64,000 nt of DNA from an uncultured Planctomycetia bacterium. GTDB lineage: Bacteria; Omnitrophota; Gorgyraeia; Duberdicusellales; 4484-171. Position 1 is the stretch's first letter, and each line of letters opens with the position of its first letter. Positions 14,998-35,655 of this stretch are shown one piece after another. The translations under genes were made by a program, and so were the position numbers. Where the stretch lies: contig CAZAYU010000005.1 of NCBI GenBank assembly GCA_964489445.1, forward strand, positions 68,799 through 132,798, in the 5' to 3' direction. Below the pieces are notes generated by a model that ran no database searches, had not been told where the DNA came from, and saw only the letters and a program-made list of their open reading frames with translations.

Positions 14998-15058
14998 AAC
15001 TCCCCGTATTGGACAACTTTCGCAACTGGCTATATACAGAAGAAACCGTCAAATCGAA
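14998..15058. repeat. dispersed intergenic repeat, family member R2-A (aactccccgtattggacaactttcgcaactggctatat...)
   Basis: Related copies at 30100-30160 and 31963-32050; shares AACTCCCCG core with R1 copies. Confidence 0.8.
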
Positions 15059-15061
15059 TAA

Positions 15062-15334
15062 TTATTTCAATCTATTATCCACTACAGGAACAAGGAAAGA
15101 GGTTACATAAAGGTTTCCATTGCTTCTAAGCGAATGCATTGTTCCAGCGGGAACAATAAATGCTTTGCCTACGTTTAACTCGACTTGCCCATCTTCTAAA
15201 ACTCCAAAGCCAGAACCTTCCATGCAATAGAATATTTCGTCCTGTTTATCGTGTTTATGCAGAGGCACTTTTGTCTCTGATGTGAGATGATATACTTTTG
15301 TAACGATTGATTCTTTAACAGAGTTTAAATCCAT
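15062..15334 (-). CDS. cupin-domain protein (90 aa)
   Basis: VPLHKHDKQDEIFYCMEGSG...PAGTMHS cupin motifs. Confidence 0.6.
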   Translation of the reverse strand: MDLNSVKESIVTKVYHLTSETKVPLHKHDKQDEIFYCMEGSGFGVLEDGQVELNVGKAFIVPAGTMHSLRSNGNLYVTSFLVPVVDNRLK

Positions 15335-15464
15335 ATTTTTCCTCCTTATCTACTCCTTGCTTTGTTTAGTTTTTTCTTTTGTTTGATTAGGGCAGGTCCA
15401 ACTCATATCTTTATTTTCTTATTTTTATTCTACCTTAAACAAAAACCCCCTACAACATAAATTG

Positions 15465-15509
15465 CTACAGAGGGTTAGAAAGTCAAACTCCCCGAATGGG
15501 GCTCAAACT
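15465..15509. repeat. dispersed intergenic repeat R1-A (ctacagagggttagaaagtcaaactccccgaatggggctcaaact)
   Basis: About 85% identical to 34143-34188; partial copies at 35636-35655, 34351-34374, 21958-21983. Confidence 0.85.
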
Positions 15510-15642
15510 CTACCTTTACCAAATTTTTCCCAAAATCACCTACCCAGACTCTGTGCCAAATCCCCTTTTTCCCTAAATCTTTAGTCGATATGTATCGCTT
15601 TATATCCTTCCTTTTTAATTCCTCTGCTAATCTCTCTTACCT

Positions 15643-17238
15643 TCAACTTGACCTTTTGTATTTAAGCCAAGTTACTATCCCTCCAATACCAATAAGAAGA
15701 GGTATAACAAAAAGGATAACAACCACCATTCGTTTTTGCTTGCTCGTCAAATCGAGCCGTTCGACTTTAATTTCCTTCTGATTGATAAAAATCTTATATT
15801 CTAAATCTGAAAGCCAACTAATAACGTTCAACCCCATCTGGGCATTACTATATTTCTCAATAAAACCATTCGATAAAAAGTCTGTATCAGTGAAAACAAC
15901 GATACGGGTATCAGAAGATTCATTCTCTTGCTTTGGCTCCAAAATAGCAAATGCAATGGGAACCGGCCCTGGAACATCTACACCTTTATCAAATTTAACA
16001 TTGAGAGTCCGATCCGTTTCGCCCCAGCTACTTTCGTCTGAAGCGGTTAAAACCACTGGGGCTACTTTAATTGATTTGCGTCGATTTTCTAAAATAGAAA
16101 TTGAACGAGGACGGATATAAAAAGTATAATCCAAATCTTTAATAATAGCTTGGTGCGGCGGGTAATTGCGGGTAGCCGGACACCCTACATCCTGACCAAT
16201 ATGATTAGCTAAATCTACAACAATATCATCGGCAATCTTTATCCCCCAATGGTTGAGAATGTTGTTTAAAGAAGGGTTCCTGCGCTTTTCTTCTTCTGTT
16301 AGTGGTTTATCGGGTGTAGTAATGGGGGTATTCTCAATTAAAAAGAAAGCGTCACCGCCATTCTCTAAGTACCCCTTGATAATCTCTTCCTCTTCCTCTG
16401 TTAAAGGATTTCGAGGCCCAGCCACGATAAGGACATCACAATCTTCGGGAACTTTTTCTTCTACTCCCAACATCACCGTTTTTACCTCTATATTATTGGC
16501 GATTAGTATCCGCGTTAGAATACTCAAGCCATTATCACCATCATCAGAAACATCGTATTCTCCATGTCCGATTAAAAAGTAAACAACGCGCTTATCTCTT
16601 GCCACTTGAATAATGGCATTGGTTACCTGATCTTCAGATAACGGTTCGTTGGTAAAATCAATATCCTTACGCTCACTACCAGAGAGAGCTATAACCTTTC
16701 TTTCTTTTCCGCTTATTACGCTGCCAAATTGGGCAGCATAGCCAATCTGCACGATAGGATCAATGATTTCGGCTTTAATCCTTCCTTGAGAACGCCTTTC
16801 ATATTCCTTAAACAAGTCTTCTAAATACTTTGGCGGTATTCCTACATAAAAAGCGACAATTTTAACTTCCCGTTGAAGATCTTTAATAACTGCAGAGGTA
16901 CTTTCCGATAAGGTGTGCTGTTTGGCTTTAGTTACATCCCAACGCACATTGTAACGATACGATAAATAGTTAATCCCCACGAGAAGAGCTAAAAGGAACA
17001 CAGTTACAAATACACTAAACCCATACTTCTGCCATTGAAAACCGCGCGCTGACTTTTTGGTAAATTTTCTTAACTCAAAAAGAAAAATCAAAACACAACT
17101 TATGCCAATTAAAGAAATAATAATGGTTATTTTACTGAAATGGTTTTCTACATAAGAAAAACCCAGACCATACAAAAGACAAAACATCCCCATTGCAAAT
17201 AGTAAAGACAGATTTATAAGTTTTTTCTTTAACGCCAT
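15643..17238 (-). CDS. GldG-like auxiliary component of ABC-type transport system
   Basis: 531 aa, N- and C-terminal TM anchors flanking large periplasmic domain; sits downstream of ABC ATPase and ABC-2 permease. Confidence 0.5.
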   Translation of the reverse strand: MALKKKLINLSLLFAMGMFCLLYGLGFSYVENHFSKITIIISLIGISCVLIFLFELRKFTKKSARGFQWQKYGFSVFVTVFLLALLVGINYLSYRYNVRWDVTKAKQHTLSESTSAVIKDLQREVKIVAFYVGIPPKYLEDLFKEYERRSQGRIKAEIIDPIVQIGYAAQFGSVISGKERKVIALSGSERKDIDFTNEPLSEDQVTNAIIQVARDKRVVYFLIGHGEYDVSDDGDNGLSILTRILIANNIEVKTVMLGVEEKVPEDCDVLIVAGPRNPLTEEEEEIIKGYLENGGDAFFLIENTPITTPDKPLTEEEKRRNPSLNNILNHWGIKIADDIVVDLANHIGQDVGCPATRNYPPHQAIIKDLDYTFYIRPRSISILENRRKSIKVAPVVLTASDESSWGETDRTLNVKFDKGVDVPGPVPIAFAILEPKQENESSDTRIVVFTDTDFLSNGFIEKYSNAQMGLNVISWLSDLEYKIFINQKEIKVERLDLTSKQKRMVVVILFVIPLLIGIGGIVTWLKYKRSS

Positions 17239-17939
17239 AATCGGTTCTCAATGCTAAGCCTTGTGAATAAGATACAAATAAAAATACCGCTCAAGTAATA
17301 CACCAGATCCGCCGTAGTGATCAGTCCCATGCTAAAATTTTCGGCATGACTCCAAGTGCCGATGTATCGAATCAAGGTTTCTGCGTGGCCGCTGAAATAC
17401 TTGATAAAGCTTATTGAGAAATATAATAGGAATAAGATTACATAAGAGCTTATCGCGGAGATAATTTGATTCTTTGTCAATGAAGAAGCCAGTATGCCAA
17501 TGGCAATGAATAAAGCACCCTCCAACCAAACACCTAGATACCCTATTAGCACCACCATTAGTTCTGGTTGACCAAAAAATTCGAGAATAAAATAATAGCT
17601 CGTTGTTAATCCAATAATGAGCGAGAAAAATATGAGACTGCCCAAATATTTGCCAAGAACAATTTCAGTGTTTGTCGTCGGAGTAGTCATTAAAAATTCC
17701 ATGGTGCCGGAGGATTTCTCCTCAGCGAATGTTTTCATAGTTAAAAGCGGTACAATGAAAATAAACAAAAATTCCATGACTTTAAATACATCGCGCAGAC
17801 TAGCCTCTCGGCCTTGGTCAATTATCAAAAAAAAGAATATATTAAAAACCGAAATAGTAAGAATCAAAACAATATAAGCAATAGGGGATTTAAAATAAGC
17901 TTTTAATTCTTTTGCGGCAATAGCAAATATTTTACTCAT
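17229..17939 (-). CDS. ABC-2 type transporter permease (GldF-like)
   Basis: 236 aa, six hydrophobic segments; overlaps flanking genes by 4-10 nt. Confidence 0.6.
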   Translation of the reverse strand: MSKIFAIAAKELKAYFKSPIAYIVLILTISVFNIFFFLIIDQGREASLRDVFKVMEFLFIFIVPLLTMKTFAEEKSSGTMEFLMTTPTTNTEIVLGKYLGSLIFFSLIIGLTTSYYFILEFFGQPELMVVLIGYLGVWLEGALFIAIGILASSLTKNQIISAISSYVILFLLYFSISFIKYFSGHAETLIRYIGTWSHAENFSMGLITTADLVYYLSGIFICILFTRLSIENRLWR

Positions 17940-18664
17940 AGCGGTTGACTCTCCTTGGCAGAATGTAATCTTAAAAATACATCTTCAAGATTTGTCCCGG
18001 GCTGTTTTAAAAGGATTCCCAAAGTTTCGTCAACGACAATTTCACCGGATTTAATTATTAAAACCCTTTGAGCGATCTGCTGAATCTCAGAAAGAATATG
18101 TGTGCTTAGGATCACCGTTCTTTCATATTCTAAACTTTTAATAAGATTACGCACTTGAATAATCTGAACCGGATCTAGACCAATGGTCGGTTCATCCAAT
18201 ATTAGAACCTGGGGATCATTAATTATGGCTTGAGCGATACCCACTCTTTGTTTATACCCTCGTGAAAGGGTGTCGATGGTTTCACTTTGAACACTTTGGA
18301 GACTGCACGATTCTATTGATTTATCTATTTGAACACGCTGCCGTTTAGCCGGAACACTTTTTAGCTGGGCGGCAAACTTAAGGTACTCCCTTACAGTCAT
18401 ATTAGTATAAAGCGGTGGTGTTTCAGGCAAGTATCCTATTTTTTTACGAATGGTCAAAGAGTTCTTGTCTACTTCTTGTCCGGCAATGATAACCTTGCCA
18501 GATGTGGCAGGAAGGTACGAAGTCAAAATGCGCATAATCGTAGTTTTTCCGGCACCGTTCTGGCCTAAAAACCCAACAATTTCTCCTTTGTTAATTTCAA
18601 ATGAGACATCCTTTAGGGCCTGAACTCTACCGAAATATTTTGTAACCTGTTCGACGACAATCAT
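17936..18664 (-). CDS. ABC transporter ATP-binding protein (GldA-like)
   Basis: GQNGAGKTT Walker A, LSRGYKQRV signature, ILDEPT Walker B. Confidence 0.85.
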   Translation of the reverse strand: MIVVEQVTKYFGRVQALKDVSFEINKGEIVGFLGQNGAGKTTIMRILTSYLPATSGKVIIAGQEVDKNSLTIRKKIGYLPETPPLYTNMTVREYLKFAAQLKSVPAKRQRVQIDKSIESCSLQSVQSETIDTLSRGYKQRVGIAQAIINDPQVLILDEPTIGLDPVQIIQVRNLIKSLEYERTVILSTHILSEIQQIAQRVLIIKSGEIVVDETLGILLKQPGTNLEDVFLRLHSAKESQPL

Positions 18665-18836
18665 AGTTTAGCTCTCTACTCGCTTTTGGATCTTTATACC
18701 GAAATTAATAATCCCATTTGTTGTCTTTGCCTATGTAGACTTCTTGTATACTAATAACTATATTTATAGTATCTCTTTCGGCAAATTTGGCAAGCTGAAA
18801 ATATTCTCCAATCCATAATTACTCCTTATTTTTCAG

Positions 18837-19523
18837 TTACTTTATAACACCGCTGATTAAATATATCCAAATATAATAAATGCCAACAAGAACAAAAATC
18901 GCTCCTGTAATCTTTCTCGTCCACATTTCAAGTTTTGCAGTCTTATGAAACCATTTAGAAAATGACTTCACCCCAAACATAATACCTATCGCAAATACAG
19001 CAACAGGTATTCCAGTGCCTATCCCGTAAATAAATGGATGGATTATTCCTATCTTACTATTTAGGGCAAGAGGAATTAAACTCCCAAAAAACAATGCAGC
19101 TGCAATCGGACAAAAAGATAAAGCAAAAATCATCCCTAAAAGAAAAGCACCGCCAATTCCTGAATCAGCTAATTTATTTTGTTTTTCTTGCGATACTAAC
19201 AACGAAAAAGAATTAAATTTTATGATATCAAAAAGAAATAACCCGACAAGAACGAGAATCGGGCCAATAATTTTATTCATATATGATTGCAAAAAACTTG
19301 CAACCGACGGCACACTCACAAGAGAAGCAATGATAATAGACCCAATAACAACATAAGTCACCATCCTGCCTAAAATGTATGCCAAGCTTGAGAACAAAAC
19401 AGCTTTAGGATGATTAACTTTTTTTGAAAGAAAAGATACTGCCGCAATATTAGTAGCTAACGGGCAAGGACTAATAGATGTAAGTATGCCAAACCATAAA
19501 GCCGAAAATAATTCAATCATCAT
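18837..19523 (-). CDS. ccdA: CcdA/DsbD-family transmembrane thiol-disulfide electron transporter
   Basis: ISPCPL motif with conserved Cys pair in TM1, second Cys in SFCP; 228 aa polytopic. Confidence 0.75.
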   Translation of the reverse strand: MMIELFSALWFGILTSISPCPLATNIAAVSFLSKKVNHPKAVLFSSLAYILGRMVTYVVIGSIIIASLVSVPSVASFLQSYMNKIIGPILVLVGLFLFDIIKFNSFSLLVSQEKQNKLADSGIGGAFLLGMIFALSFCPIAAALFFGSLIPLALNSKIGIIHPFIYGIGTGIPVAVFAIGIMFGVKSFSKWFHKTAKLEMWTRKITGAIFVLVGIYYIWIYLISGVIK

Positions 19524-19538
19524 ATTATCCTGCCTCCA

Positions 19539-20003
19539 TTAATTAATAAAACCATTTGTTTCATCTTTGATATACTCATAAAATTTATCCTTGCTACCCA
19601 AAAGATTCCAAACCTTATCCAAATTCTTAAATTCGACCTCTTTTCCATCAGACACTTTTGAAAGCACAACAGACTTAGTATATAATTTATAATCTTGAAT
19701 GAAATGCTTATTCTGAAGCTCATCAACATTAATCATTTGAAAATCAACTTTTCCAGAAGCTATTTCATCAAAAAAGTATTTCTCCAAAGACTCCTTAGTA
19801 TATTGCTCAATCTTGTGACAAGACACACATCTAGCCGTTGTATAAAAATAATAAGCAACAACCTTTGAATCGCTGACAGACAAAACCGTCTTAACAACAG
19901 AATCAACTTCTGCTTTTTGAGAATTAGCATTACCTGAAAAAGCATAAGTGCTAATCACTACTGCCAATATTACAAAGATACTTAACGATATTATTTTCTT
20001 CAT
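19539..20003 (-). CDS. secreted thioredoxin-fold protein (CxxC)
   Basis: Signal peptide; YFYTTARCVSCHK resembles Trx W-C-x-x-C active site. Confidence 0.5.
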   Translation of the reverse strand: MKKIISLSIFVILAVVISTYAFSGNANSQKAEVDSVVKTVLSVSDSKVVAYYFYTTARCVSCHKIEQYTKESLEKYFFDEIASGKVDFQMINVDELQNKHFIQDYKLYTKSVVLSKVSDGKEVEFKNLDKVWNLLGSKDKFYEYIKDETNGFIN

Positions 20004-20035
20004 CCTTTACACTCCGATATTTTTGTAATTATTAG

Positions 20036-20266
20036 TTATTGTAATAATCCTTTAATCTCGTCAACCGTTGAAACTTTCCCTGCAACTTTCACAACGCCAT
20101 CAATCACTAGCGCAGGAGTGACCATAACAGCATAATCTGTTATTTTGTCCATATCTTCAACCTTGACCAACTCTGCATCAATTCCCAAATCTGCAATAGC
20201 TATTTCGACATTCCCAAAAAACTGTTTACACTTTGGGCAACCCATCCCTAAAATTTCAATTTTCAT
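20036..20266 (-). CDS. thioredoxin-family small protein (redox-active disulfide protein 2 type)
   Basis: 76 aa, MKIEILGMGCPKCK with CPKC redox motif. Confidence 0.7.
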   Translation of the reverse strand: MKIEILGMGCPKCKQFFGNVEIAIADLGIDAELVKVEDMDKITDYAVMVTPALVIDGVVKVAGKVSTVDEIKGLLQ

Positions 20267-20290
20267 CTTTATTTTCCTCCTTATTCTAAA

Positions 20291-21460
20291 TTAAACTATC
20301 ATTCCAAAAAGCATTCCGCTTGTTGTCGCCATGACAACAACAAGACTCACATAAACAACCGTCTTCTTAGTGCCAATAACTCCCCTAATAACAAGCATAT
20401 TTGGAAGGCTTAACGCAGGCCCGGCGAGTAACAATGCAAGAGCTGGCCCTTTACCCATACCTGAACCAATCAAACCCTGCAAAATAGGAACTTCTGTCAG
20501 CGTTGCAAAATACATAAATGCCCCCACAATTGACGCAAAAAAGTTTGAAAAGAAAGAATTTCCCCCAACAGCCTTTGCAATAATCCAAGAAGGAATAAGC
20601 CCTTCATGTCCAGGACGTCCCAACAGTAATCCAGCGACAAGCACGCCCATTAAAAGTAACGGCATAATTTGTTTAGCAAAAGTCCAAGAGCTTTTCGTCC
20701 ACTCAGTAACTTCATCCTTCTTAAACCACTTAACAAGCATAAAGCCGATCATAGCCAAGAAACCAAATGCCAAATACCATTTAGCAGAAAATATCAAAGC
20801 CCACAAACCTGTCTCACCTGCTTGTGGTCTTGCCCAGTTAGCAAATATTAAAAATCCGACCATAGAAAAGAAATATAAAGCATTCTGCCATAACGCCCTT
20901 GGCTCTTTCTCCTCACCAGCAAACAACTCTCCCTCCGCTTTTCTTGCACGCTCTTCCTTAATAAAAATAAGGTGCATCAATAAGCCAATAACCACACTAA
21001 AAACAATAGCACCAACAGCCCTCGCAACTCCCAACTGCCAACCGAGAATACGAGCAGTCATTATAATTGCTAAAACATTAATTGCCGGACCAGAATAAAG
21101 AAAAGCAGTTGCTGGTCCTAATCCTGCCCCTCTCTTATAAATACCAGAGAATAATGGTAAAACAGTACAGGAGCAAACCGCAAGGATTGTTCCTGAAACA
21201 GATGCAACACTGTAAGCAAGAAATTTATTTGCCTTTGCGCCGAAATACTTAACAACGGAAGCCTGACTAATAAATACTGAAATCGCACCAGCGATAAAAA
21301 ATGCCGGTACAAGGCAAAGTAAAACATGCTCCCTTGCATACCAACGTACCAGCGCGATGGATTCAAATACAGGATTCCTAAAAGATAGCAGTTCAACTGG
21401 CAGATAAAAACACCCCAAGAACACGGCAGCCATTAATAAAAATTTATTCCGTTCTTCCAT
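20291..21460 (-). CDS. COG0701-type permease (ArsP-like), start trimmed to Met abutting arsR
   Basis: Polytopic; conserved VCSCT motif resembling the ArsP Cys pair; ORF-track N-terminal extension overlaps arsR so internal Met MEERNKF chosen. Confidence 0.6.
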   Translation of the reverse strand: MEERNKFLLMAAVFLGCFYLPVELLSFRNPVFESIALVRWYAREHVLLCLVPAFFIAGAISVFISQASVVKYFGAKANKFLAYSVASVSGTILAVCSCTVLPLFSGIYKRGAGLGPATAFLYSGPAINVLAIIMTARILGWQLGVARAVGAIVFSVVIGLLMHLIFIKEERARKAEGELFAGEEKEPRALWQNALYFFSMVGFLIFANWARPQAGETGLWALIFSAKWYLAFGFLAMIGFMLVKWFKKDEVTEWTKSSWTFAKQIMPLLLMGVLVAGLLLGRPGHEGLIPSWIIAKAVGGNSFFSNFFASIVGAFMYFATLTEVPILQGLIGSGMGKGPALALLLAGPALSLPNMLVIRGVIGTKKTVVYVSLVVVMATTSGMLFGMIV

Positions 21461-21461
21461 A

Positions 21462-21815
21462 TTATTCCATACAACAAAGTTTTTCTCTGTTAGCTCTCTT
21501 AATTTTAACAATATCCTGCTTAATAAGAGTATCGTCATTTAGCCATTTCTTCATCAGAGACAAAATAGCCCTTGAATATGTACTTCTTGGTTTAAGAACA
21601 TAATTCGTCCAAAAACTATCCTGTTGAGCTTCAATAAGACCGGCTTTTTTTAGTTTTTTCAAATGACGTGAAACGCTAGGCTGTGTTATCCCCAAGACAA
21701 AAGCGATTTCACAAACACAAAGATTTCGCCTCTCAAGCAGTTTTAAAATCCTAATCCTATTTTTATCAGCACATGCCTTTAATACTTTCTCAAAATCATC
21801 CATAAATATCTCCAA
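21462..21815 (-). CDS. arsR: ArsR/SmtB-family transcriptional repressor
   Basis: ILKLLERRNLCVCEIAFVLGITQPSVSRHLKKLKKAGLI wHTH with Cys pair. Confidence 0.8.
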   Translation of the reverse strand: MEIFMDDFEKVLKACADKNRIRILKLLERRNLCVCEIAFVLGITQPSVSRHLKKLKKAGLIEAQQDSFWTNYVLKPRSTYSRAILSLMKKWLNDDTLIKQDIVKIKRANREKLCCME

Positions 21816-21877
21816 TATCTACATAGCAGAATAGCTATATAGTAACACACAGGACATACCTCCGTCAATACAATTAA

Positions 21878-21889
21878 TCGCTAGCGATA
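21878..21889. promoter_or_regulatory. perfect 12-nt palindrome ATCGCTAGCGAT just upstream of a TTGACG -35-like hexamer of arsR operon; candidate operator
   Basis: Seen directly; located about 65-75 nt upstream of arsR ATG. Confidence 0.2.
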
Positions 21890-21957
21890 AAGGGAGATAA
21901 ACCATCGGCCTAAAACCATTTAATCGGATTTCTGAGAGATATGGTTTATGATTGGAA

Positions 21958-21983
21958 TTTGAGCCTCAAAAGAGGCTCAAACT
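21958..21983. repeat. palindromic member of the GGCTCAAACT repeat family (tttgagcctcaaaagaggctcaaact)
   Basis: Perfect inverted repeat TTTGAGCCTC/GAGGCTCAAA with 4-nt spacer. Confidence 0.7.
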
Positions 21984-22360
21984 ATTAAGAATGCATAAGT
22001 GCTGAGCGAGTGAAACTTGTCCTGAACTTGTCGAAGGAACGAGTCGAACCATTGTCCAGCCTTTGTCCAGAGATATTCGAACTCGTCAAAAATGTCCCCA
22101 ATCCCTCCTCTTTTTAGATAAAATATTTGCAGTACCTTTTTATGGCTTTTTATATTTATAAATAGCTGTAATTATGCCATATATTAACTATGGAACAAAA
22201 CCAAAACAGTTTTATTTGAAATAAAAAGTGAAGATTTATAGAGTAAGGCTAAAACTAGGTCTGAATCTGTTATACTCAGGATAACATCAACAAGTTATTA
22301 AGTTAACTGTCCTATTTAGAAGCGTAAGTTGAAAATTGCATCCAGCACGATTACGCTTGC

Positions 22361-23704: not shown

Positions 23705-23711
23705 AATTTTA

Positions 23712-24239: not shown

Positions 24240-24515
24240 TTATATATTATATCCCTATCGACTCCATAAACAAGCATAATAAAATGACTACTTTTCAGGC
24301 ATCAGGAATGTATAAAAATATAGTTTCTCAATCACGGATTACCTGATCAGCTATTTTTTAAATCCGGCAATCTTGTCTTTACTCGCTCGTTGCTTCACCA
24401 ACGGCATCTTTTGCTTTGGCAGTTAAGACTTGCCTTGCTTTTTCCAATTAATATCTGGATACCAAAAACACCTCTCTATTTCCCTTGATATTTCTCGATA
24501 TATATAGAAACAAAA

Positions 24516-24558
24516 AGCCTCGTAGCATTTTACTGCTGCGAGGCTTTTATAAGTGGTT
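24516..24558 (-). terminator. Rho-independent terminator (12-bp stem, bidirectional-looking) downstream of peroxiredoxin
   Basis: aaaagcctcgtagc-attttact-gctgcgaggctttt; A-run on one side, T-run on the other. Confidence 0.55.
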
Positions 24559-24584
24559 CCCAGACCTGGGTTTGAACCTAAAAC

Positions 24585-27851: not shown

Positions 27852-27866
27852 ATATATTTCCGTTGT

Positions 27867-28514
27867 TTAAATCTTCTTTAAGATGACCACCTTTTGACCA
27901 TCATCAAAAACTATCTTAAACCCAAACTGCTCGCAGATGTAAGAAAAAGTCTTGGCATGATAAAAACAAACATGACAACTATCATTAGGATAGTTCCAGC
28001 TTGCAAAATCTTCCAGATTGCTCCACCGATTTGTCATGGCAATCAATAAGCCTTCATTCTCCAATAAAGCATGAATCTTCTGTATGTCTTTCCGTGGCTT
28101 AAAGAAATGCTCAAACACTTCCGTGGAGAAAATAAATTCAAATTTCTTTTTTAGCTTATGCTTAACAAAAAATGGATCAAAGTCTTCGCATGTATACCCT
28201 TCTCTCTCCAATAACACAGAAAGGGTTGGATTCGGACCACAGCCATAATCAAGACCCGTCATATCCTTGGTAACAAATTCCAAAGCAGGTTCAATCGCTT
28301 GACGGAGAAACTCAACGTATCCTTCATGTTGAATCCCATTTTGATGCGTAGCATAGCGTGCTTTCTCTGATGCTTTGTCTAAGAGATGTTTTTGATCAAC
28401 ACTGATCAAATGACAGTTTTCACATTGATAATAAATTCTCTTATCAATGCCACTAACAGGCGTCATCGCCTTCTTTGAGTTACATAATTGACATATATTG
28501 TGGAAAAATTCCAT
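27867..28514 (-). CDS. class I SAM-dependent methyltransferase with N-terminal Cys4 zinc ribbon
   Basis: CQLCN...CENC ribbon; LDYGCGPN motif I. Confidence 0.65.
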   Translation of the reverse strand: MEFFHNICQLCNSKKAMTPVSGIDKRIYYQCENCHLISVDQKHLLDKASEKARYATHQNGIQHEGYVEFLRQAIEPALEFVTKDMTGLDYGCGPNPTLSVLLEREGYTCEDFDPFFVKHKLKKKFEFIFSTEVFEHFFKPRKDIQKIHALLENEGLLIAMTNRWSNLEDFASWNYPNDSCHVCFYHAKTFSYICEQFGFKIVFDDGQKVVILKKI

Positions 28515-28685
28515 GTTGGTATCATAGCGTATTTTTGATCTTTTGCCATATAAACATTACAAATTTATACAAAGACTCTCACTGGTTCGAGACATCACAA
28601 TAACAAAATAAAAATCGTGAAATCGGAAAACACAATACTTATTTATTCCAGCCCATAAACAGAAAAAGACAATCACTTTTGAACA

Positions 28686-28720
28686 AATATAAAAATCCCG
28701 TCCAGATTAATGGAAGGGAT
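28686..28720 (-). terminator. candidate Rho-independent terminator (minus strand) after engB/rSAM-like remnant
   Basis: atcccgtcca-gattaa-tggaagggat stem followed on minus strand by TTTTTATATTT. Confidence 0.4.
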
Positions 28721-28744
28721 TATGAAAAAACTCCCCGGGAATTA

Positions 28745-29119
28745 CCATTAGAGAAAGGAACGAAAGGTATCTTGGCTATCTTATCGACCGCCTCGATTGT
28801 TTCCTCAACGCTTGAATATTTTCCGCACCGATCAAGCACACACTGATTACCGCTTTCGAGGCCCATGTAGATGAGGCTTAGCTTATGCTTGTATATCTCT
28901 GCTAGTTCATGATTATTTTTTTCTTGCGATATTGCCTCCGTTCGCGTAACTTGAAATGCGGGTTAGCCGAAAAAAAGCGACTCCAGTTCTTCTAAGATAG
29001 GAACAAGCTTACTATTAGCCAAGACAAGGGCATCTCCCATCCATAAGAAAAATACGCCGCAAATACTGCAGCTATCCGCTTCCGCCAGTGGTCTTATACC
29101 AGGCTCGACTATTGACATC
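28745..29119 (-). pseudogene. radical-SAM-like gene remnant interrupted by in-frame TAA next to a T7 homopolymer
   Basis: Minus-strand frame reads ...ILEELESLFFG-stop-PAFQVTRTEAISQEKNNHELAEIYKHKLSLIYMGLESGNQCVLDRCGKYSSVEETIEAVDKIAKIPF; LSLxxGLESG...EETIEAV resembles rSAM core; no CxxxCxxC N-terminus (space occupied by engB). Confidence 0.3.
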
Positions 29120-29714
29120 TTATGTCCAGTAATTTGGTAACTATCTTCTGCAGATCTGTTATCCCGATATTCTTTTTTGAGCTGACCCAAGAGATATCAC
29201 AAGTATCAACAACAAGTTCGACGACAATATCCTTTTTTCTCTGGTTAAGTTTTGAAGGCCTTATCTTGTCGATCTTGTTTACGATGATACTAAGGGGGAG
29301 TGAGTAGTGTTTAAGCCAATCGATCATTATAATATCCAGCTTTGTCGGTCCCGCAACAGCATCGATAATAACAAATATCATGCGCAGCTTCTCCCTGCTG
29401 CTCAGATATCCTTCTATTATCAGGCCTAATCGTTTCTTTTTGTGTCTTAGCCCGACAGCGTATCCATAACCGGGGAGATCGACTATCCAACGGCCACGCT
29501 TGACTTCGTAAACATTAATAGTCCTTGTCTTTCCCGGGACCTGCGAGGCATGTGCCATTTTCTTTTTTTGGCATAGAGTGTTGATGAGAGTGCTTTTGCC
29601 TACATTAGACCGTCCGACGAAAGATACTTCCGCCTCACTCTCTCCGAGCTTCAGAGCATCAGCTTCGGTCTTTAAATATTTGGTGTCGCGTAATATCTTC
29701 TGAGTTGTATTCAT
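29109..29714 (-). CDS. engB: ribosome-biogenesis GTPase EngB/YsxC
   Basis: VSFVGRSNVGKSTLINTL G1, DLPGYGY G3, NKIDK G4. Confidence 0.85.
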   Translation of the reverse strand: MNTTQKILRDTKYLKTEADALKLGESEAEVSFVGRSNVGKSTLINTLCQKKKMAHASQVPGKTRTINVYEVKRGRWIVDLPGYGYAVGLRHKKKRLGLIIEGYLSSREKLRMIFVIIDAVAGPTKLDIIMIDWLKHYSLPLSIIVNKIDKIRPSKLNQRKKDIVVELVVDTCDISWVSSKKNIGITDLQKIVTKLLDIRCQ

Positions 29715-29810
29715 AGATCTTTTTAAAATAGACCGGCAAACCGATCATTGAGCTCATAAATGCGCCATACCCCATGTCGATTAATCTTGTCGAATGTCTG
29801 GCCTTGGCCC

Positions 29811-30104
29811 TTATAAAGAGTTGTGGCTTAAGACCAGCTCACAAAGCCCCGCAACCTCAGCTTCTATCTTATCTTCAGCCTCATTATAACTATACTCTAT
29901 CTTTTGCCACTTCACAACAGGAACATCGTATGTAAGCCCGTTGATATCCACGACTATCGAATCTTTCATAAAGCGATAACTTTGGCAAGCGGGCCATTCA
30001 CCCATCTTTTGATGGTAAGGAAAAGATTCAAGCCGGAAGATATTATTCTGAAGCCTTGGTATCTCTCTATTTAAATTTAGAGAGATTATACTGGCTCTCT
30101 GCAT
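29811..30104 (-). CDS. hypothetical small protein; real start may be internal Met (MGEWPACQ...)
   Basis: ORF-track start lies inside repeat R2-B and an AT palindrome; no family. Confidence 0.25.
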   Translation of the reverse strand: MQRASIISLNLNREIPRLQNNIFRLESFPYHQKMGEWPACQSYRFMKDSIVVDINGLTYDVPVVKWQKIEYSYNEAEDKIEAEVAGLCELVLSHNSL

Positions 30105-30160
30105 TGGACGAGTTTAGCAACTGGCTATATTTAGAGGAAGCAAGAAATTGTCGTACAAAT
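30100..30160. repeat. dispersed repeat R2-B (cattggacgagtttagcaactggctatatttagaggaagcaagaaattgtcgtacaaat)
   Basis: Matches 14998-15058 and 31963-32050. Confidence 0.8.
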
Positions 30161-30322
30161 TGCTGGCTATAGCATAAATCTGAATCGATTATTATACCGT
30201 TTGAACTATACTCAGAGGAGACCGCTCAAAAATACATTGTTTCATTATGGTTTATTACGATATAATAACGCCCAATAGAAACATACGAAAATGACAAAAT
30301 TAGGAGCAACACTGTAGATTGA

Positions 30323-30451
30323 AATGCTATTCAAGAAGCTATTGTAAAAAAGGGTTATCTTGTTAATTCAGAGACAAAGGTTCCTTTGCATAAACACGAT
30401 GAAAAAGATCAGTTCTTTTTCTTTTTCGAACAAGCCTGTGTTAATACTTGA
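30323..30451 (+). pseudogene. truncated cupin paralogue fragment (no start codon)
   Basis: Plus frame NAIQEAIVKKGYLVNSETKVPLHKHDEKDQFFFFFEQACVNT; 19/29 identical to cupin 15062-15334 (ESIVTKVYHLTSETKVPLHKHDKQDEIFY); bounded by stop codons. Confidence 0.6.
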
Positions 30452-30473
30452 AATTATATAAAGGGTACTAAAA

Positions 30474-31829
30474 ATGAAAAATGAAAACCAAGCAGTATTA
30501 ATAAACGGGCCAGTCAGTAGAACTCTGCTCCAACTATCTCTTCCTATGATGGTGGGTATGGTTGGAATGGTTATTTTTAATCTTGTAGATGCATACTTTA
30601 TCAGCAAGCTAGGTACGGCTGCTTTAGCAGCGATGACTTTTACTTTGCCTGTAATAATGTTTCAGGCAAGTATTGCAATGGGCCTGGGAATAGGGACTTC
30701 TTCCGTTATTTCAAGATTAATAGGAGAAGGAAATCCAAGTAAAGTGAGAAGGCAGACGACAGACAGCCTTCTCTTGTCTCTTTTGATTGTTATCTTCATT
30801 GCTATTGTAGGAATACTGACGGTTCGCCCCTTATTTTCCATGTTAGGCGCCCGAGGTGAAATACTGGAACTTGCAATAGATTATATGACGATATGGTATT
30901 ACGGAGTAGCCTTTGTTGTTATACCTATGGTAGGCAATAATGCAATACGTGCTGTAGGGAATACTGTAATACCTTCAATGATTATGTCCGTTGCCGTTGT
31001 GGTTAACTGCATCCTTGATCCTATACTGATATTCGGCATCGGACCATTCCCTGCGATGGGTATGCAGGGTGCAGCTTTGGCAACAGTGATTGCAAGAGCT
31101 ACTACTCTCATATTTGCTTTATTATTTCTGCATAAAAAATTCGATATGTTAACCTTGCAAGTTCCTAAACTTAAGGAATTATTGTTGTCCTGGAAAAAAA
31201 TATTATATGTGGGAATCCCTGCAGCTCTGACTATGCTTATTAATCCGTTAGCTTTTGGGTTTATCACAAAATTGGTTTCGTCTTACAGTAAAGAAGCGGT
31301 AGCTGCTTTGGGCGTAGGAAGCAGAGTAGAGATGTTCGCATTATCACCATTAATGGCATTAAGTTCAGTACTTATACCGTTCGTAGGACAGAATTTAGGA
31401 GCAAAGAAAATTGATAGAGTTAAAAAGGGAATTTATGCAAGCCAGATATTTTCCGTTTTTCTTGGATTATTTATGTTTATGTTTTTTATTTTTTTCAGGA
31501 ATTGGGTGGGTGGTTTTTTTGGAGAAAGCGAAAAAGTTGTTGCGATATTCAATACCTACATATTAATTTCTTCTGCAGGGTATGGTTTTCTTGGAATATT
31601 TTTTATTAATAACTCAGTTTTTAATGCAATTAAACAGCCTATTACCGCTACCCTTCTTAATATTATAAGGATGTTTTTTTTGTATATCCCATTTGCCTGG
31701 ATTTTATCGTATATATTTCAGCTTAAGGGAATATTTTGGGGGATTTTTATTTCTTCCGTTATTTCGGGGACACTCTCTCTTATTTGGGTGAAATCGAGAG
31801 TAAACAAATTAACGATTAAAAAGCAATAG
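30474..31829 (+). CDS. MATE-family multidrug efflux transporter
   Basis: 12 TM, LLQLSLPMMVGMV start and internal duplication typical of MATE/NorM. Confidence 0.8.
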   Translation: MKNENQAVLINGPVSRTLLQLSLPMMVGMVGMVIFNLVDAYFISKLGTAALAAMTFTLPVIMFQASIAMGLGIGTSSVISRLIGEGNPSKVRRQTTDSLLLSLLIVIFIAIVGILTVRPLFSMLGARGEILELAIDYMTIWYYGVAFVVIPMVGNNAIRAVGNTVIPSMIMSVAVVVNCILDPILIFGIGPFPAMGMQGAALATVIARATTLIFALLFLHKKFDMLTLQVPKLKELLLSWKKILYVGIPAALTMLINPLAFGFITKLVSSYSKEAVAALGVGSRVEMFALSPLMALSSVLIPFVGQNLGAKKIDRVKKGIYASQIFSVFLGLFMFMFFIFFRNWVGGFFGESEKVVAIFNTYILISSAGYGFLGIFFINNSVFNAIKQPITATLLNIIRMFFLYIPFAWILSYIFQLKGIFWGIFISSVISGTLSLIWVKSRVNKLTIKKQ

Positions 31830-31962
31830 GGGCAGCATATTATTAAATTTTGTTCATCTCCATATGTAGCAGTGGAAATGGCTTCCCCTGACCATCAGTA
31901 GCTGATCTACCAACGAATTATTGAGCTAGGACAACAGTTCCCTTTAATCTTATTTTTATATT

Positions 31963-32050
31963 AACTCCCCGTATTGGACGAGTTTAGCAACTTCTTGGAT
32001 GAGTTTAGCAACTGGTGCTTTTTGAAGGAAGCGAGAGAATTGCATAATAA
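31963..32050. repeat. dispersed repeat R2-C containing a tandem 21-nt duplication (ttggaYgagtttagcaact x2)
   Basis: aactccccgtattggacgagtttagcaacttcttggatgagtttagcaactggtgc... Confidence 0.8.
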
Positions 32051-32101
32051 AGTAGCTATAATTATTTAATAGGTTTTGCTATTATGCTCCACAGCTGCCT
32101 C

Positions 32102-33937
32102 TCATCTCATTCTCTTTCCCAGCAATACTATATCTCTTAACGCTTTTTCATTTCTAGCAGATAACCATTTCTTATTAAAATTTGGATTCTGAACAATCTG
32201 GGCAATTGCCGCTAAAGCACGAAGATGAAAATTCCTTTCATCTTTTGTTCCTACAAGAACAAATACCGTATGGACTTTTGAGGCAGACTCTGAAAATTTA
32301 ATTCCCTTCTTGCATCTTACTAACAGCATATCAAACAAACTCTGTCCATCGACAATAATATGAGGTATTGCAATGCCAGAACCTATAACGGTGCTAGTTT
32401 CCCTTTCTCTTTCGGAAATTAGCTGTAAAAAGGTAGAGGCTTCAACTTTTAAGCGCTTAGAAAGACTGTCGGAAACTAATTTGAAAAAAGCGTCAATTTC
32501 CATTTCTTTATCTATGTCAAGAACGATACACTTCTCAATAATATTATCAAATCTATCTTTTACGATATCATCTCTTTCTCGAATAATTTCCTTCAATTCA
32601 GTTTCTAGGGAACGGGAAGTCAGCTCTTTCGCCATAATATTCTCTATTAAATGAAGAAGAGCGTGCGTCCCTATGTATTTCTTTCTTCCATAGAAAAAGT
32701 AAAACCCTATGCTAATCACTAGAAAAGATAAACTAATTTCAATTGCGCCGAGGCCCATGTAAATGATAAAGAAAGAAAAAACAATAATTCCAAATATTTG
32801 CAACCAAGGATACAACGGAACTTTAAAGCTTGGTTGATAATTTTGAATCTTGCTTTCCCTAAATATTATTACAGCAATGTTAGTTAATACATAAGAAGTT
32901 AAGATAACAGTTGAAGCAGCTTTCACCAGCATCTCTAATGGCAACAATAACGCTAAAAGAATAAATATTCCGGTCATAACAATAGAAATGACGGGTGTTT
33001 TAAATTTCTTACTTATTTTGCTAATAGCATCGGGTAAAAGCTTATCCCGGCTAAGCGCAAGAGGGTAACGGGATGCAGACATTATTCCGGCATTAGCTGT
33101 TGTAATAAAAGCTAACAAGGCTGCAATTGAAATAGCTATAAAACCTGGCGTTCCCATAAATATTTTTGCAGAATCAGCTACTGGCGTAAGTGAGTTAGAT
33201 AGCTGAGCTGAATTTAAAACCCCAACTAAGACAACAAGTAGTAGGGTATACACTGCAGTAACAGCTATCACTGAAATAATCATTCCTAAAGGAATATTCT
33301 TTTTAGGATTCTTAACTTCCTCAGATATGCTTGCCACTTTCAATAAACCGCCAAAAGAGATAAAAATAAAACCTGCTGTGACAATGATAGAATTTATTCC
33401 TTGCGGAGCAAAAGGAATGAAATGCGAAACGTTAATCTTTGAGAGGCCAAACACAATATACAAACCCAACAAAACAAAAAGCCCTAAAACAAGAAACACT
33501 TGAAGTTTTGCAGCATTTTTTACTCCACGAATATTTAAAAATACAAAAAAAAGGCAAATTGCTATTGAAGAAAACACGACCTCGATACCAGTAGCCAGAA
33601 AAATTATCTCAGCTATACCAAATATTGCAAAAGCACTCTTAAGAGACAGTGCTATCCAACCTAGAAAACCAGACATAGTTCCTATCAAAGGGCCTAGACT
33701 TCTAGTTATATAATAATAATCTCCTCCTGCTTTTGGCATTGCCGTAGATAATTCAATAATGCTCAATACTCCAATTAAGGCAAGCAACCCCGCCAATAAA
33801 TATGAAATAATTACAGAAGGACCTGTTCTGATAAATGCAAGTCCCGGTAGTATAAAAATACCCGAGCTTATCATCGCACCACTTGAAATACAGAACACAT
33901 CAATTAAATTCAGTTCTTTTTTAAGCATTCTCACCAT
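32102..33937 (-). CDS. APC-family amino-acid permease fused to C-terminal PTS EIIA(Ntr/fructose)-type domain
   Basis: 12-TM APC core (FCISSGAMISSGIFILPG); C-terminal about 150 aa with GIAIPH motif of PTS_EIIA_2. Confidence 0.7.
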   Translation of the reverse strand: MVRMLKKELNLIDVFCISSGAMISSGIFILPGLAFIRTGPSVIISYLLAGLLALIGVLSIIELSTAMPKAGGDYYYITRSLGPLIGTMSGFLGWIALSLKSAFAIFGIAEIIFLATGIEVVFSSIAICLFFVFLNIRGVKNAAKLQVFLVLGLFVLLGLYIVFGLSKINVSHFIPFAPQGINSIIVTAGFIFISFGGLLKVASISEEVKNPKKNIPLGMIISVIAVTAVYTLLLVVLVGVLNSAQLSNSLTPVADSAKIFMGTPGFIAISIAALLAFITTANAGIMSASRYPLALSRDKLLPDAISKISKKFKTPVISIVMTGIFILLALLLPLEMLVKAASTVILTSYVLTNIAVIIFRESKIQNYQPSFKVPLYPWLQIFGIIVFSFFIIYMGLGAIEISLSFLVISIGFYFFYGRKKYIGTHALLHLIENIMAKELTSRSLETELKEIIRERDDIVKDRFDNIIEKCIVLDIDKEMEIDAFFKLVSDSLSKRLKVEASTFLQLISERERETSTVIGSGIAIPHIIVDGQSLFDMLLVRCKKGIKFSESASKVHTVFVLVGTKDERNFHLRALAAIAQIVQNPNFNKKWLSARNEKALRDIVLLGKRMR

Positions 33938-34082
33938 TTAACATCTCTTTATATTTAATCCATAGCGCCGTTTCATAAATATTATCGGCGATGTAATCTG
34001 GCTGAGATGAAAGTTCTTCCCTGTGTTTGGTGCCATGCCCTATCAGAAGAAATACCGAATGAACACCTGTTCTTTTAGCCAT
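33923..34082 (-). pseudogene. 53-aa ORF resembling the N-terminus of CbiX/SirB-type chelatases; likely 5' gene stub
   Basis: MAKRTGVHSVFLLIGHGTKHREELSS...; overlaps start of permease; not in ORF track. Confidence 0.2.
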
Positions 34083-34142
34083 GTATACTTATCCTTTCCT
34101 ACATAATTTACTACAAAATAAAACCCTCTGCAACTAATTTCG

Positions 34143-34188
34143 TTACAGAGGGCTTGAAAAGTCAAACTCCCCGAGTAGGGCTCAAACT
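34143..34188. repeat. dispersed repeat R1-B (ttacagagggcttgaaaagtcaaactccccgagtagggctcaaact)
   Basis: About 85% identical to 15465-15509. Confidence 0.85.
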
Positions 34189-34350
34189 TATTTACTTAAT
34201 CCTGTTCAATCGTACTGCTGTCTGTCGTTGTTTAGCCTTGTTTTGTTGATATCAAACTCTATCTCTGTTTTGAATGAACAAATGAATCTACGACTTTAGA
34301 GATTATTGGTAATTTAGTTCGCTTTAGAGATACAAGTTATAACTTGATAT

Positions 34351-34374
34351 CGCTGATCGGGCAGGGCTCAAACT
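34351..34374. repeat. partial repeat R1-D (cgctgatcgggcagggctcaaact)
   Basis: Shares GGGCTCAAACT terminal core preceded by short hairpin. Confidence 0.6.
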
Positions 34375-34565
34375 TTAACTACAAACCACCAGGTTATGAG
34401 CCTGTCAGATACATTTAAAAACCTGTTGATTTATAAAGACTATTATGATTTCAGTATTTATTGGTGTCCAAATAATACACTAAAAGGACAAAATTATCTT
34501 CTGCTTGCAATAGAAAAGAACATCCACCGGCTTAGCCGGTGGATGTTTACTAATATGGCTTTTTT

Positions 34566-35060
34566 TTATTTAAACTCTTTTGATGCTGCGTTCATAGAAG
34601 ATGAGCGAAAAGTAACTTTTTTTATTGGCATCTTATCTTTAAGAAGCTCGTAGAAAAGTTCGCAAAGATTCTCACAAGTAGAAACTTTTTTGGTCACAAC
34701 TATTCTGTATTCTGGATATGACCAAGCAAGTGCGTGGTCTATCTTTTTAAGAGGAACACAATGCTCTGGGTCGTTATGAATGCCTTCCTTTTTGTATACA
34801 GCAAGAACCGCGTCAAGAAGCGGATCACCTTCTTGAAACATTGTTCCGTGGTGGAAATGGTCACAAACTTCCCATGCTTTTTTGAATCCCTCTTTACAAG
34901 CGTGTGCATATCCAGTCACCGAGTCTACGGTGTCTTCAAGCTCAATCGTTAAAAGACCTGAGTGCCCGTGAAGGTGCTTTGCTTCGCACGGCCAATTCAT
35001 AAACCTATGTGCGTACTGGAAATCAAGTTTTACGATTGATGTGTACTTATCGTTTGACAT
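34566..35060 (-). CDS. 6-pyruvoyl-tetrahydropterin synthase family protein (QueD/PTPS-like) with Cx5HGH motif
   Basis: MSNDKYTSIVKLDFQYAHRF...CEAKHLHGHSG; isolated between repeats. Confidence 0.6.
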   Translation of the reverse strand: MSNDKYTSIVKLDFQYAHRFMNWPCEAKHLHGHSGLLTIELEDTVDSVTGYAHACKEGFKKAWEVCDHFHHGTMFQEGDPLLDAVLAVYKKEGIHNDPEHCVPLKKIDHALAWSYPEYRIVVTKKVSTCENLCELFYELLKDKMPIKKVTFRSSSMNAASKEFK

Positions 35061-35435
35061 GATAGTTTCCTCCTTTTAGTTAATGTCTATATTTTTATAT
35101 TATTTACTGCATGCTACTAATTGCGATTTATTTTCTTAATCAACCACCTCCTTTATACTGCTAATAGATGGATTATGCAAGAAATCTTAATATATACCTA
35201 TTAAGAGAGATAATTGAGACTAATATTTACCATTTAATCACTTATTCTCCACAAAAGCCAATTCCTGGATCTTCAAATGTCAGCCAAATATGCGATTAAA
35301 TAGGTGGCATTTTAGAGATAAAGAGATAGATCATGATTTGGTTTTAGCCATTGCAATTAAAAGGTTTGTGGGGATTTTGTGAAGTTACAATTTAACTGGA
35401 AAACTATAGGCCTAAACGTTTGAGGTGACAAGACA

Positions 35436-35480
35436 TAAAAAATGCCCTGAACTACATTGAGTTCAGGGCACTATTTAATA
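35436..35480. terminator. perfect 10-bp stem-loop (gccctgaact/agttcagggc) flanked by A-run and T-rich tail; terminator-like
   Basis: aaaaaatgccctgaactacattgagttcagggcactattt; a second 8-bp palindrome ctcgaacttgagttcgag follows at 35482-35503. Confidence 0.4.
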
Positions 35481-35635
35481 TCTCGAACTTGAGTTCGAGG
35501 TTATTTACTGGCTCGGGGGGTAGGGGTCTAGGATAACACTATCTCTACCTGTCGTCCCCTATAATAAGCGACCACTATCCAGGCTACCATTTAATCGGTT
35601 GAGTTAAGAGATAAGGTTTGTAGCTAGGATTAGTG

Positions 35636-35655
35636 CCTCGAATGGGGCTCAAACT
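35636..35655. repeat. partial repeat R1-C (cctcgaatggggctcaaact)
   Basis: Matches core of R1-A/B. Confidence 0.65.

Follow-up and report, generated by a model that had tools for sequence, protein, structure and literature searches.

The stretch analysed here, 64,000 nt of contig CAZAYU010000005.1 from an uncultured bacterium of the Omnitrophota (the window), has a GC content of about 37%, with nearly all of its genes on the minus strand and a negative GC skew throughout. Between about 15 and 36 kb, its intergenic regions hold short repeats that a first-pass annotation, made from the letters of the sequence, had described as one diverged family in two forms, R1 and R2. We found that the repeats are real: the motif AACTCCCCG occurs exactly five times (14998, 15486, 28729, 31963, and 34165), against 0.14 expected from shuffled sequence, and GGCTCAAACT also occurs five times (15500, 21974, 34179, 34365, and 35646; 0.09 expected). 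All exact copies of both motifs lie on the plus strand and, as the annotation had said, between genes. The long R1 pair (15442-15509 and 34120-34188) is 84% identical over 70 nt, close to the 85% first given, and for a further pair, at 21915-21983 and 35586-35655, identity over 70 nt is 74%. The three R2 copies were recovered with nhmmer (14993-15060, 30088-30155, and 31958-32046; E 1e-10 to 1e-18), the third with the tandem duplication of 21 nt already noticed (31974-31994 and 31995-32015). Independent contigs from JGI and ENA contain the window DNA with 99.7-100% identity, and Logan and NCBI contigs encode its proteins; therefore, the repeats are not an assembly artefact.

Other parts of the first description needed amendment. 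The copies it listed are present, but it had missed the core copy at 28729 and overlooked position 35512 (CTCGGGGGGTAGGG), which, together with both R1 hybrids, matches a relaxed core-like pattern. What had been placed at 30100 as a copy of R2 is indeed R2, but its core, at 30095, is degenerate (CTCTCTGCA). The segment (A/T)AT(G/T)GG, supposedly common to R1 and R2, does not fit the copy at 34165, which reads AACTCCCCGAGTAGG. A hairpin was said to precede every R1; it does so at 15486 and 34165 only, whereas the copies at 35632 and 21958 are themselves dyads and that at 34351 has no hairpin. Finally, the neighbours are not all accessory single-gene units, since EngB, an ABC-F protein, and an ABC operon are among them. 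The features, in window coordinates, are as follows.

14981 to 14997, minus strand: left arm d, a small terminator-like hairpin (A6-GGCGCC-T5) abutting the core, from sequence and fold.
14998 to 15006, plus strand: first copy of the junction core, AACTCCCCG, which bounds the cupin cassette-like unit as its left direct repeat.
15007 to 15060, plus strand: R2 copy 1, a conserved right arm beginning TATTGGACAACTTTCGCAACTGG (nhmmer E 1e-17; folding z +1.28).
15062 to 15334, minus strand: Cupin_2 gene, 90 aa, the putative cargo.
15444 to 15476, minus strand only: c-type intrinsic terminator hairpin with a 14-bp stem that includes G-U pairs, part of the left arm of the next junction.
15486 to 15509, plus strand: R1 hybrid, in which the core AACTCCCCG runs into the R1 tail AATGGGGCTCAAACT; it bounds the cupin unit as its right direct repeat.
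21830 to 21983, plus strand: B'-R1', a diverged B-R1 paralogue that ends in a perfect 12-4-12 dyad (21956-21983), directly upstream of arsR.
28620 to 28728, plus strand: module A, with a minus-strand terminator hairpin at 28695-28720; 92% identical to positions 4108-4221 of contig L013.
28729 to 28737, plus strand: core copy joining arm A to a unique right flank.
30060 to 30094, plus strand: X-like hairpin and spacer TTATACTGG, laid out as in module X but with a different stem sequence.
30095 to 30155, plus strand: R2 copy 2, with the degenerate core.
30299 to 30440, plus strand: cupin pseudogene fragment beside R2 copy 2.
31963 to 32046, plus strand: core (31963-31971) and R2 copy 3 with the 21-nt duplication, the left direct repeat of the APC unit.
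32102 to 33937, minus strand: APC-family permease gene, 611 aa, the putative cargo.
34121 to 34155, minus strand: c-type intrinsic terminator hairpin, homologous to 15444-15476.
34165 to 34188, plus strand: R1 hybrid, in which the core runs into AGTAGGGCTCAAACT; it bounds the APC unit as its right direct repeat.
34189 to 34374, plus strand: module S, a gene-less unit of 186 nt between the GGCTCAAACT copies at 34179-34188 and 34365-34374; it recurs with identical 186-nt spacing in contig L070.
35293 to 35511, plus strand: module X, in which 35443-35470 forms a minus-strand terminator hairpin and 35481-35499 another hairpin, with spacer GTTATTTACTGG.
35512 to 35655, plus strand: module B-R1, with core-like start CTCGGGGGGTAGGGG and imperfect dyad end GTGCCTCGAATGGGGCTCAAACT; 80-90% identical to copies in L013/L055, L026, and L070.
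35656 to 35690, plus strand: module T (TGTGGGAATTTGTCCAAATTTGTC), the next module after B-R1 in all four full copies.

To see where the similarity between these modules begins and ends, we compared 16 junctions: seven from the window, two lying about 2-4 kb beyond its right end (contig L070, from the same genome), six from contigs of Candidatus Susulua stagnicola, and one from another contig. Fourteen of these were aligned on the motif ...(A/G)CTC-(C/G)4..., in which the hyphen marks the junction, and identity was scored on each side separately; the two L070 junctions were added to them. Homology stops at the junction motif in all 16, and all have the same orientation. Five comparisons illustrate how the arms on the two sides vary independently.

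Window X-B and Susulua X-R2: 91-94% identity on the left, 23-26% on the right (left arm the same, right arm different).
Window X-B and Susulua or L026 A-B: 37% on the left, 97-100% on the right (left different, right the same).
Window A-unique (28734) and Susulua A-B: 94% on the left, 26% on the right (left the same, right different).
Window R2 at 15003 and Susulua R2 with another flank: 31% on the left, 89% on the right (left different, right the same).
Window c-R1 tail/S (34170) and Susulua h-R1 tail/S: 29% on the left, 89% on the right (left different, right the same).

The L070 junctions contribute another X-B joint and a new combination, X with R1 tail/S (about 2 kb beyond the right end of the window), and between them lies a HEPN/nucleotidyltransferase gene pair. 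As such, left arm X has three partners (B, R2, and R1 tail/S), the right arms B, R2, or R1 tail/S come after X, A, c, or unique flanks, and R2 alone follows at least five left flanks. R1 and R2 are thus distinct modules that share only the junction motif (A/G)CTC-CCCG, which in the window reads AACTCCCCG. Outside this junction of some 9-15 nt we found no relatedness between them, so that the proposal of one diverged family is not supported; their short likeness is the junction itself and not common ancestry.

The left arm is usually the terminator of the upstream minus-strand gene (types c, X, A, and d). These hairpins have the features of intrinsic terminators, namely a stem-loop rich in GC that lies downstream of a gene and has a U-tract behind it on the strand being transcribed. 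Of all terminator-like sites in 20 kb, those at 34155-34121 and 15476-15444 take the top two ranks, with G-U pairs that work on the minus strand only, and the hairpins of X and A also have U-tracts. The right arm is of three types: R2, B (the start of a conserved 145-nt block), and the R1 tail, formed by the right half of a 12-4-12 dyad whose end is GGCTCAAACT. The R2 arm is about 60-75 nt long and non-palindromic, with two GRCAAC half-sites 11 bp apart, and R2 plus core is not self-complementary (minimum free energy z +1.28 and +0.38). A second sharp boundary of homology lies immediately after GGCTCAAACT. To its left stand two classes of sequence, c plus the R1 hybrid or B...R1, and to its right several unrelated ones (T, S, or unique sequence). 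In its ancestral form, R1 appears to have been a 28-bp dyad, judging from 21956-21983, which is a perfect 12-4-12 dyad, and from native R1 at 35633-35650, which has one mismatch; the R1 hybrid forms a CCCC-GAAT-GGGG mini-hairpin. The short motifs CGATTAAAT and GAGATAARG were also noted within modules, neither being individually significant.

Whole genes lie between such junctions. The minus-strand cupin gene is enclosed by exact 9-bp direct repeats of AACTCCCCG at 14998 and 15486, and the minus-strand APC permease gene by exact 9-bp direct repeats of the same motif at 31963 and 34165. The two units are built alike: R2 comes after the left core, and the right core stands between a homologous terminator hairpin plus GAAAGTCA on its left and the R1 tail on its right. 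Read in the orientation of the gene, each unit consists of a terminator, an upstream region, the gene, the reverse-complemented R2, and the core, which places R2 at the 3' side of the cassette gene and the terminator at its 5' side.

The same layout recurs outside the window. Contig L034/L062 carries a tandem pair, in the order X, R2 with a 47-aa and a zeta toxin gene, R2 with DUF2283 and 75-aa genes, and an R1-like element plus S; the zeta unit, with its two genes, has GGCTCCCCG on both sides. This array, which differs from that of the window, lies upstream of the ABC operon, on a contig that is 98.9% identical to window positions 1-18677. The Susulua contig L013/L055 carries R2 together with homologues of window 28620-28733 (A), 35511-35678 (B, R1, and T), and 35312-35514 (X), in another order, so that module A is found in two different contexts. 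In L013, a DUF5678/Asp-protease pair and a gene-less A unit lie between X and B, which are joined directly in the window. This provides an occupied and an empty version of one arrangement, X-B in the window and X-R2-toxin-antitoxin genes-R2-A-B in L013, with a difference of 1.08 kb. Altogether, the cupin, APC permease, zeta/47-aa, DUF2283/75-aa, and DUF5678/Asp-protease genes are followed on their 3' side by a reverse-complemented R2 and core. The exceptions to this co-orientation are MATE and the HEPN/nucleotidyltransferase pair, both inverted. The cargo is typical of cassettes, with toxin-antitoxin pairs and small single genes, and a defence island alongside.

The alignments establish the mosaic anatomy of the modules, and from it we infer an enzyme and a mechanism. 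Our favoured reading, to which we give an even chance, is that these sites are recombination junctions of small gene cassettes, and that the units move at the core by means of a site-specific recombinase encoded elsewhere in the genome. A site-specific enzyme is suggested because the core, at 8-9 nt, is too short for RecA-type homologous recombination, because exchange falls at one point in 16 junctions, and because orientation is uniform. Small units, each made up of a terminator, a gene together with the region upstream of it, and R2, would be inserted and excised at the core by this enzyme. Recombination would be conservative and insertion of the Campbell type: a unit in circular form recombines with a site in the chromosome, after which a core lies on either side of it. 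The R2 junction would then be attL- or attP-like and the R1 hybrid attR-like, and R2 may act as a P'-like arm, with its GRCAAC half-sites 11 bp apart and a 21-bp duplication spanning two helical turns. The native R1 dyad and the start of B would represent unoccupied target sites. Removal of the cupin or APC unit is predicted to leave hairpin-AACTCCCCG-A(A/G)T(A/G)GGGCTCAAACT, a site of the same kind as native R1 and the start of B. The predicted empty site would read, for example, ...GGCGCCTTTTTAACTCCCCGAATGGGGCTCAAACT..., and the circle or tandem junction ...GAAAGTCAAACTCCCCGTATTGGAC.... Later decay and rearrangement would have scattered the modules.

Several observations weigh against this reading. 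Among the genes of the window, its 10-kb flanks, L055, and L062 (about 105 kb in all), there is no integrase, transposase, or HUH gene, and the window cassettes were not seen in any circular or empty-site form. The loci of the occupied/empty comparison are paralogous and 79-92% identical, and the crossover in it is not fixed to the base. Core genes (EngB and ABC-F) occupy several of the intervals between modules, so not every interval is a cassette. Cupin homologues with 83-85% identity in other Omnitrophota (L051-L054) adjoin neither R2 nor core, and the modules are therefore confined to a narrow lineage. In addition, L034/L062 could be a chimeric assembly; L034 leaves synteny with the window at 18677, with modules on the L034 side only and none on the window side; and the close strains all share one arrangement.

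A bolder form of the favoured reading is less likely. In it, the Omnitrophota of the Susulua lineage would possess a non-integron cassette system in which small circular units, each with a terminator, a gene under its own promoter, and the non-palindromic R2 arm of roughly 70 nt, integrate at, and excise from, the core CTC-CCCG within the 28-bp R1 dyad and the B block under a trans-acting recombinase, and the arrays would shuffle toxin-antitoxin, defence-adjacent, and small metabolic genes between strains.

The main rival is single-strand transposition by an HUH/Y1 enzyme, with the units as palindrome-associated transposable elements (PATEs) derived from the insertion sequences IS200/IS605, or as repetitive extragenic palindromic (REP) sequences with their REP-associated tyrosine transposase (RAYT). 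Units would be cut and inserted 3' of AACT or AACTC after a hairpin, giving head-to-tail arrays in a single orientation and without terminal inverted repeats. We consider this unlikely, even though the one orientation of all 16 junctions and the lack of any terminal inverted repeat found are what it would give. PATEs carry conserved hairpins near both ends and insert 3' of a fixed tetra- or pentanucleotide without a target-site duplication. Here, a fixed (A/G)CT(C) stands 5' of every unit, and ...AACT ends both the left flank and the R1 unit; the R1 hybrid is also of REP size, a hairpin with conserved flanks. The hairpins speak both ways. They lie 7-14 nt from the junction in six of nine left arms, but they vary in sequence from arm to arm, whereas Y1 transposases, such as those of IS608 and ISDra2, recognise specific hairpins, and most of them are plainly gene terminators with their U-tracts on the other strand. 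Moreover, the putative top strand is the C-rich strand, and the strand bias reported for IS608-like elements is the opposite. No tnpA, tnpB, or RAYT gene was found in the 105 kb, and the copies are few and clustered.

Slightly less probable still, in our view, is that no enzyme cuts at the core and that the modules are passive 3'-untranslated or terminator segments, paralogous to one another, duplicated along with their neighbours and reshuffled by homologous, illegitimate, or gene-conversion events, the core being a terminator-proximal RNA or DNA signal. Such a signal would suit the position of the core, always 0-15 nt upstream of a terminator on the gene strand, and passive duplication would agree with the uniformity of close strains, with the want of an enzyme in the 105 kb, and with the nearby pseudogene debris (the cupin fragment and 28737-29108), which points to a decaying and rearranging region. 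It does not account for 16 junctions that break at the same few bases with freely combined arms, nor for the exact 9-bp direct repeats around three units that each hold a single gene or operon; homologous recombination needs more than 8-9 nt of identity. One and the same core sits on terminators of quite different sequence, and B-R1 shows no RNA covariation.

That R2 is functional in itself, either as a small plus-strand open reading frame (ORF) with a TTG start (M-D-[DE]-F-[RS]-N-W-L-Y-x-E-E..., 22-40 codons) or as the site of one regulator co-regulating the flanking genes, is very improbable: the frame is open for 22-40 codons in all eight copies, substitutions favour codon positions 1 and 3 in a faintly coding-like pattern, and the 21-nt duplication preserves both frame and helical phase, but there is no start context or promoter, R2 comes directly after convergent terminators, the copies at 30095 and 31963 differ by an indel that breaks their common frame some 16 residues in and leaves the tail of the peptide unconserved, none of 5.8 billion proteins shares three 5-mers with the profile of seven peptides, and R1, X, A, B, and the swapping of arms would be left unexplained.

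Thus, among the possibilities that the first-pass annotation had named, the evidence favours recombination sites over REP- or MITE-like (miniature inverted-repeat transposable element) sequences and regulator sites, with a REP-like nature weak on copy number and distribution. It had also held that its proposal would be refuted if a genome-wide search gave no further copies and the similarity were confined to these sites, for instance through local segmental duplication. The copies are clustered, which partly bears this out, yet the family extends further than such a duplication would: it recurs 2-4 kb past the right end and on other contigs in new arm combinations. Folding, as proposed there, bears out some hairpins as terminators and R1 as dyads, and B-R1-T has no real covariation.

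Further candidates were rejected. A MITE or other remnant of a DDE transposon is not supported, as neither nhmmer nor a repeat search finds an inverted copy of R2 and the unit ends (TATTGGAC... and ...AAAGTCA) are not inverted repeats; the 9-bp direct repeat could nonetheless be a target-site duplication. Module T (TGTGGGAATTTGTCCAAATTTGTC) resembles a Tn7-like end but has no inverted partner, its TTGTCC motif is not above chance in the window, and no tns genes lie beside any of the four copies; nor is T an inverted R2, for which nhmmer gives no match. R2 as the stub of a larger gene (the N-terminus of an integrase or transposase) or as a called small ORF fails on the seven-peptide profile, with no protein sharing three 5-mers. 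For known structured RNAs, Rfam gives no match at the gathering threshold and none at the repeats at E<=5, and ARAGORN detects no tRNA. B-R1-T as a structured RNA gives weak consensus folds with essentially no compensatory pairs on both strands.

In behaviour, the modules are closest to Neisseria intergenic mosaic elements (NIMEs), to clusters of attC sites lacking integrases (CALINs), and to the remnants of tandem accretion, and they are a member of none of these. NIMEs are RS repeat units bounded by 20-bp dRS3 repeats (ATTCCC-N8-GGGAAT), and are taken together here with the "minimal mobile elements". Like NIMEs, the present arrays are intergenic and consist of different modules of 50-200 nt joined at one short, partly palindromic junction; and, as in NIMEs and minimal mobile elements, the junctions mark differences in gene content and order, with whole small genes between conserved junctions. 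Unlike NIMEs, the window junctions show no similarity to dRS3, keep strictly to one orientation, have the long non-palindromic R2 arm, belong to an Omnitrophota host, and have no associated phage or IS110-type recombinase that we could see. With integron arrays and CALINs they share small genes (toxin-antitoxin pairs, cupin, and permease) with a conserved site-like repeat at the 3' side, mostly co-oriented and, in L034, in tandem. The attC site is an imperfect palindrome of 55-140 nt, R''(RYYYAAC)-L''...L'-R'(GTTRRRY), that folds into a hairpin. R2 plus core, in contrast, lacks this imperfect palindrome, and the junction sequences show no visible pair of RYYYAAC/GTTRRRY boxes; the units here carry their own terminator and upstream region and are not promoterless, and core genes stand among the modules. 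No Phage_integrase Pfam match was obtained for genes called in the window, its flanks, L055, and L062, an absence that CALINs allow and in which, having no integrase nearby, the two are alike.

The bacterial interspersed mosaic elements (BIMEs) and REP sequences of E. coli are likewise short hairpin repeats downstream of genes, in mosaics with other motifs and often beside terminators, and the short imperfect palindrome typical of REP sequences (20-40 nt, with conserved flanking bases) has its counterpart here in R1' (a perfect dyad) and, with its single mismatch, in native R1. They differ in number, with low, clustered copies here as against hundreds genome-wide, in that the dominant element, R2, is not palindromic, and in the RAYT gene, of which there is none in the 105 kb. 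In the cis-mobilizable elements (CIMEs) of streptococci and the composite staphylococcal cassette chromosome (SCC) arrays at rlmH, direct repeats of a short att core also bound recombinase-less units, with hybrid attL/attR-type junctions and tandem units around one shared core. The present units are far smaller (0.2-2.2 kb), their target is not the 3' end of a conserved gene, and no complete integrase-bearing parent element was found.

We conclude that the anatomy, which is well supported, represents a new version of the mosaic or cassette type of intergenic architecture, from a phylum without cultured members. If the junctions are active recombination sites, they would form a system for exchanging cassettes whose site architecture is new, in a phylum that metagenomes alone have revealed, and would give a handle on how small Omnitrophota genomes swap toxin-antitoxin and accessory genes. 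The signature of core plus R2 could be used to mine for cassettes and to seek the recombinase by co-occurrence. Even as inactive relics, the modules would explain part of the gene-order differences among co-existing Ace Lake strains, and they may be sites where assemblers mis-join strains.

The distribution of the family is narrow. Window proteins are found only in metagenomes from Ace Lake (Antarctica) and in one NCBI metagenome-assembled genome (MAG), and the nearest named relatives of the cupin protein are Candidatus Omnitrophota. One side of contig L034/L062 matches the window with 98.9-100% identity, and the other side matches the Ca. Susulua stagnicola contig L055 with 99.9%. Because L034/L062 joins window-type and Susulua-type sequence, the host genome appears to belong to the Ca. 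Susulua stagnicola species complex, unless this contig is chimeric. No copies of the modules occur at 36-64 kb or 1-14.9 kb of the window or in the 10 kb to its left, and searches of viral contigs and plasmids gave no match. In genome and metagenome scans, an exact 19-mer was found once in the representative Ca. Susulua stagnicola MAG and on only two related metagenome contigs; these figures are an undercount, as exact matching misses diverged copies and the collections apparently lack the window's own contig. Other exact 19-mer matches have unrelated flanks, leaving L013/L024 and L026 as the real relatives. Ca. Susulua stagnicola was named in a published study (PMC8542988), which makes no mention of such repeats.

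The remaining observations concern the surroundings of the modules. The interval from a conserved GNAT gene (93% identical) to the ABC operon is about 55 kb in the window-type genome, comprising an aryl-polyene/lipid cluster and window 18.7-64 kb, and about 2.3 kb of cassettes only in the Susulua-type contig (L070 1-8364 compared with L062 1-3630); the cause is either an assembly chimera or a very large difference between strains. At L055 1-11692, a defence island with SIR2-HerA, a 1133-aa helicase with RNase_H_2, an HNH_2 protein, and an MBL-fold protein adjoins the Susulua T-R1-B, and L026 has a UvrD-like helicase gene at the matching position. A HerA homologue with 73% identity is found on L071/L072.

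Within the window, the truncated cupin pseudogene at 30299-30440 (plus strand) is 73% identical to the intact cupin at 15245-15349 (minus strand) and lies between R2 copy 2 and MATE, inverted relative to the usual layout. The segment 28737-29108, between EngB and the core at 28729, contains no long ORF but a 75-aa ORF fragment, and resembles a decayed minus-strand gene; it is GC-richer by eye only. Module A includes a mini-ORF, ATG GGC TGG AAT AAA TAA (MGWNK), at 28648-28665, conserved in Susulua L013 at about 4175-4192. A perfect 29-nt palindrome at 34519-34547, right downstream of the PTPS gene, is probably a terminator and gives a sub-threshold Rfam match to psRNA14 (32 bits, E 0.055). The PTPS/QueD-like protein itself (34566-35060, 164 aa) falls in a 90%-identity cluster of 278 members whose named sources include Victivallales and Desulfobacteraceae, a spread that reflects either unusually high cross-phylum conservation or recent horizontal transfer.

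Arrays of (A/T)TTGTCC / AAACCTGTCCC in both orientations occur at 21990-22110 and 35656-35690 and at 10300-10560 of L051; L051 belongs to a distant Omnitrophota MAG (GCA_042564445.1), and its array sits downstream of the cupin gene. The arrays could represent a further repeat family or a motif that binds protein throughout the phylum. Also in L051, from a related Omnitrophota MAG, a called gene of 7388 aa listed at 17552-20267 has methyltransferase, protein kinase, and deaminase Pfam matches. Finally, window 142-277 holds a 9-nt tandem repeat (CTTCACTAG/TCTCACTAG) of at least 11 units inside a minus-strand ORF of 99 aa, with predicted tripeptides of the SEA/SET type.

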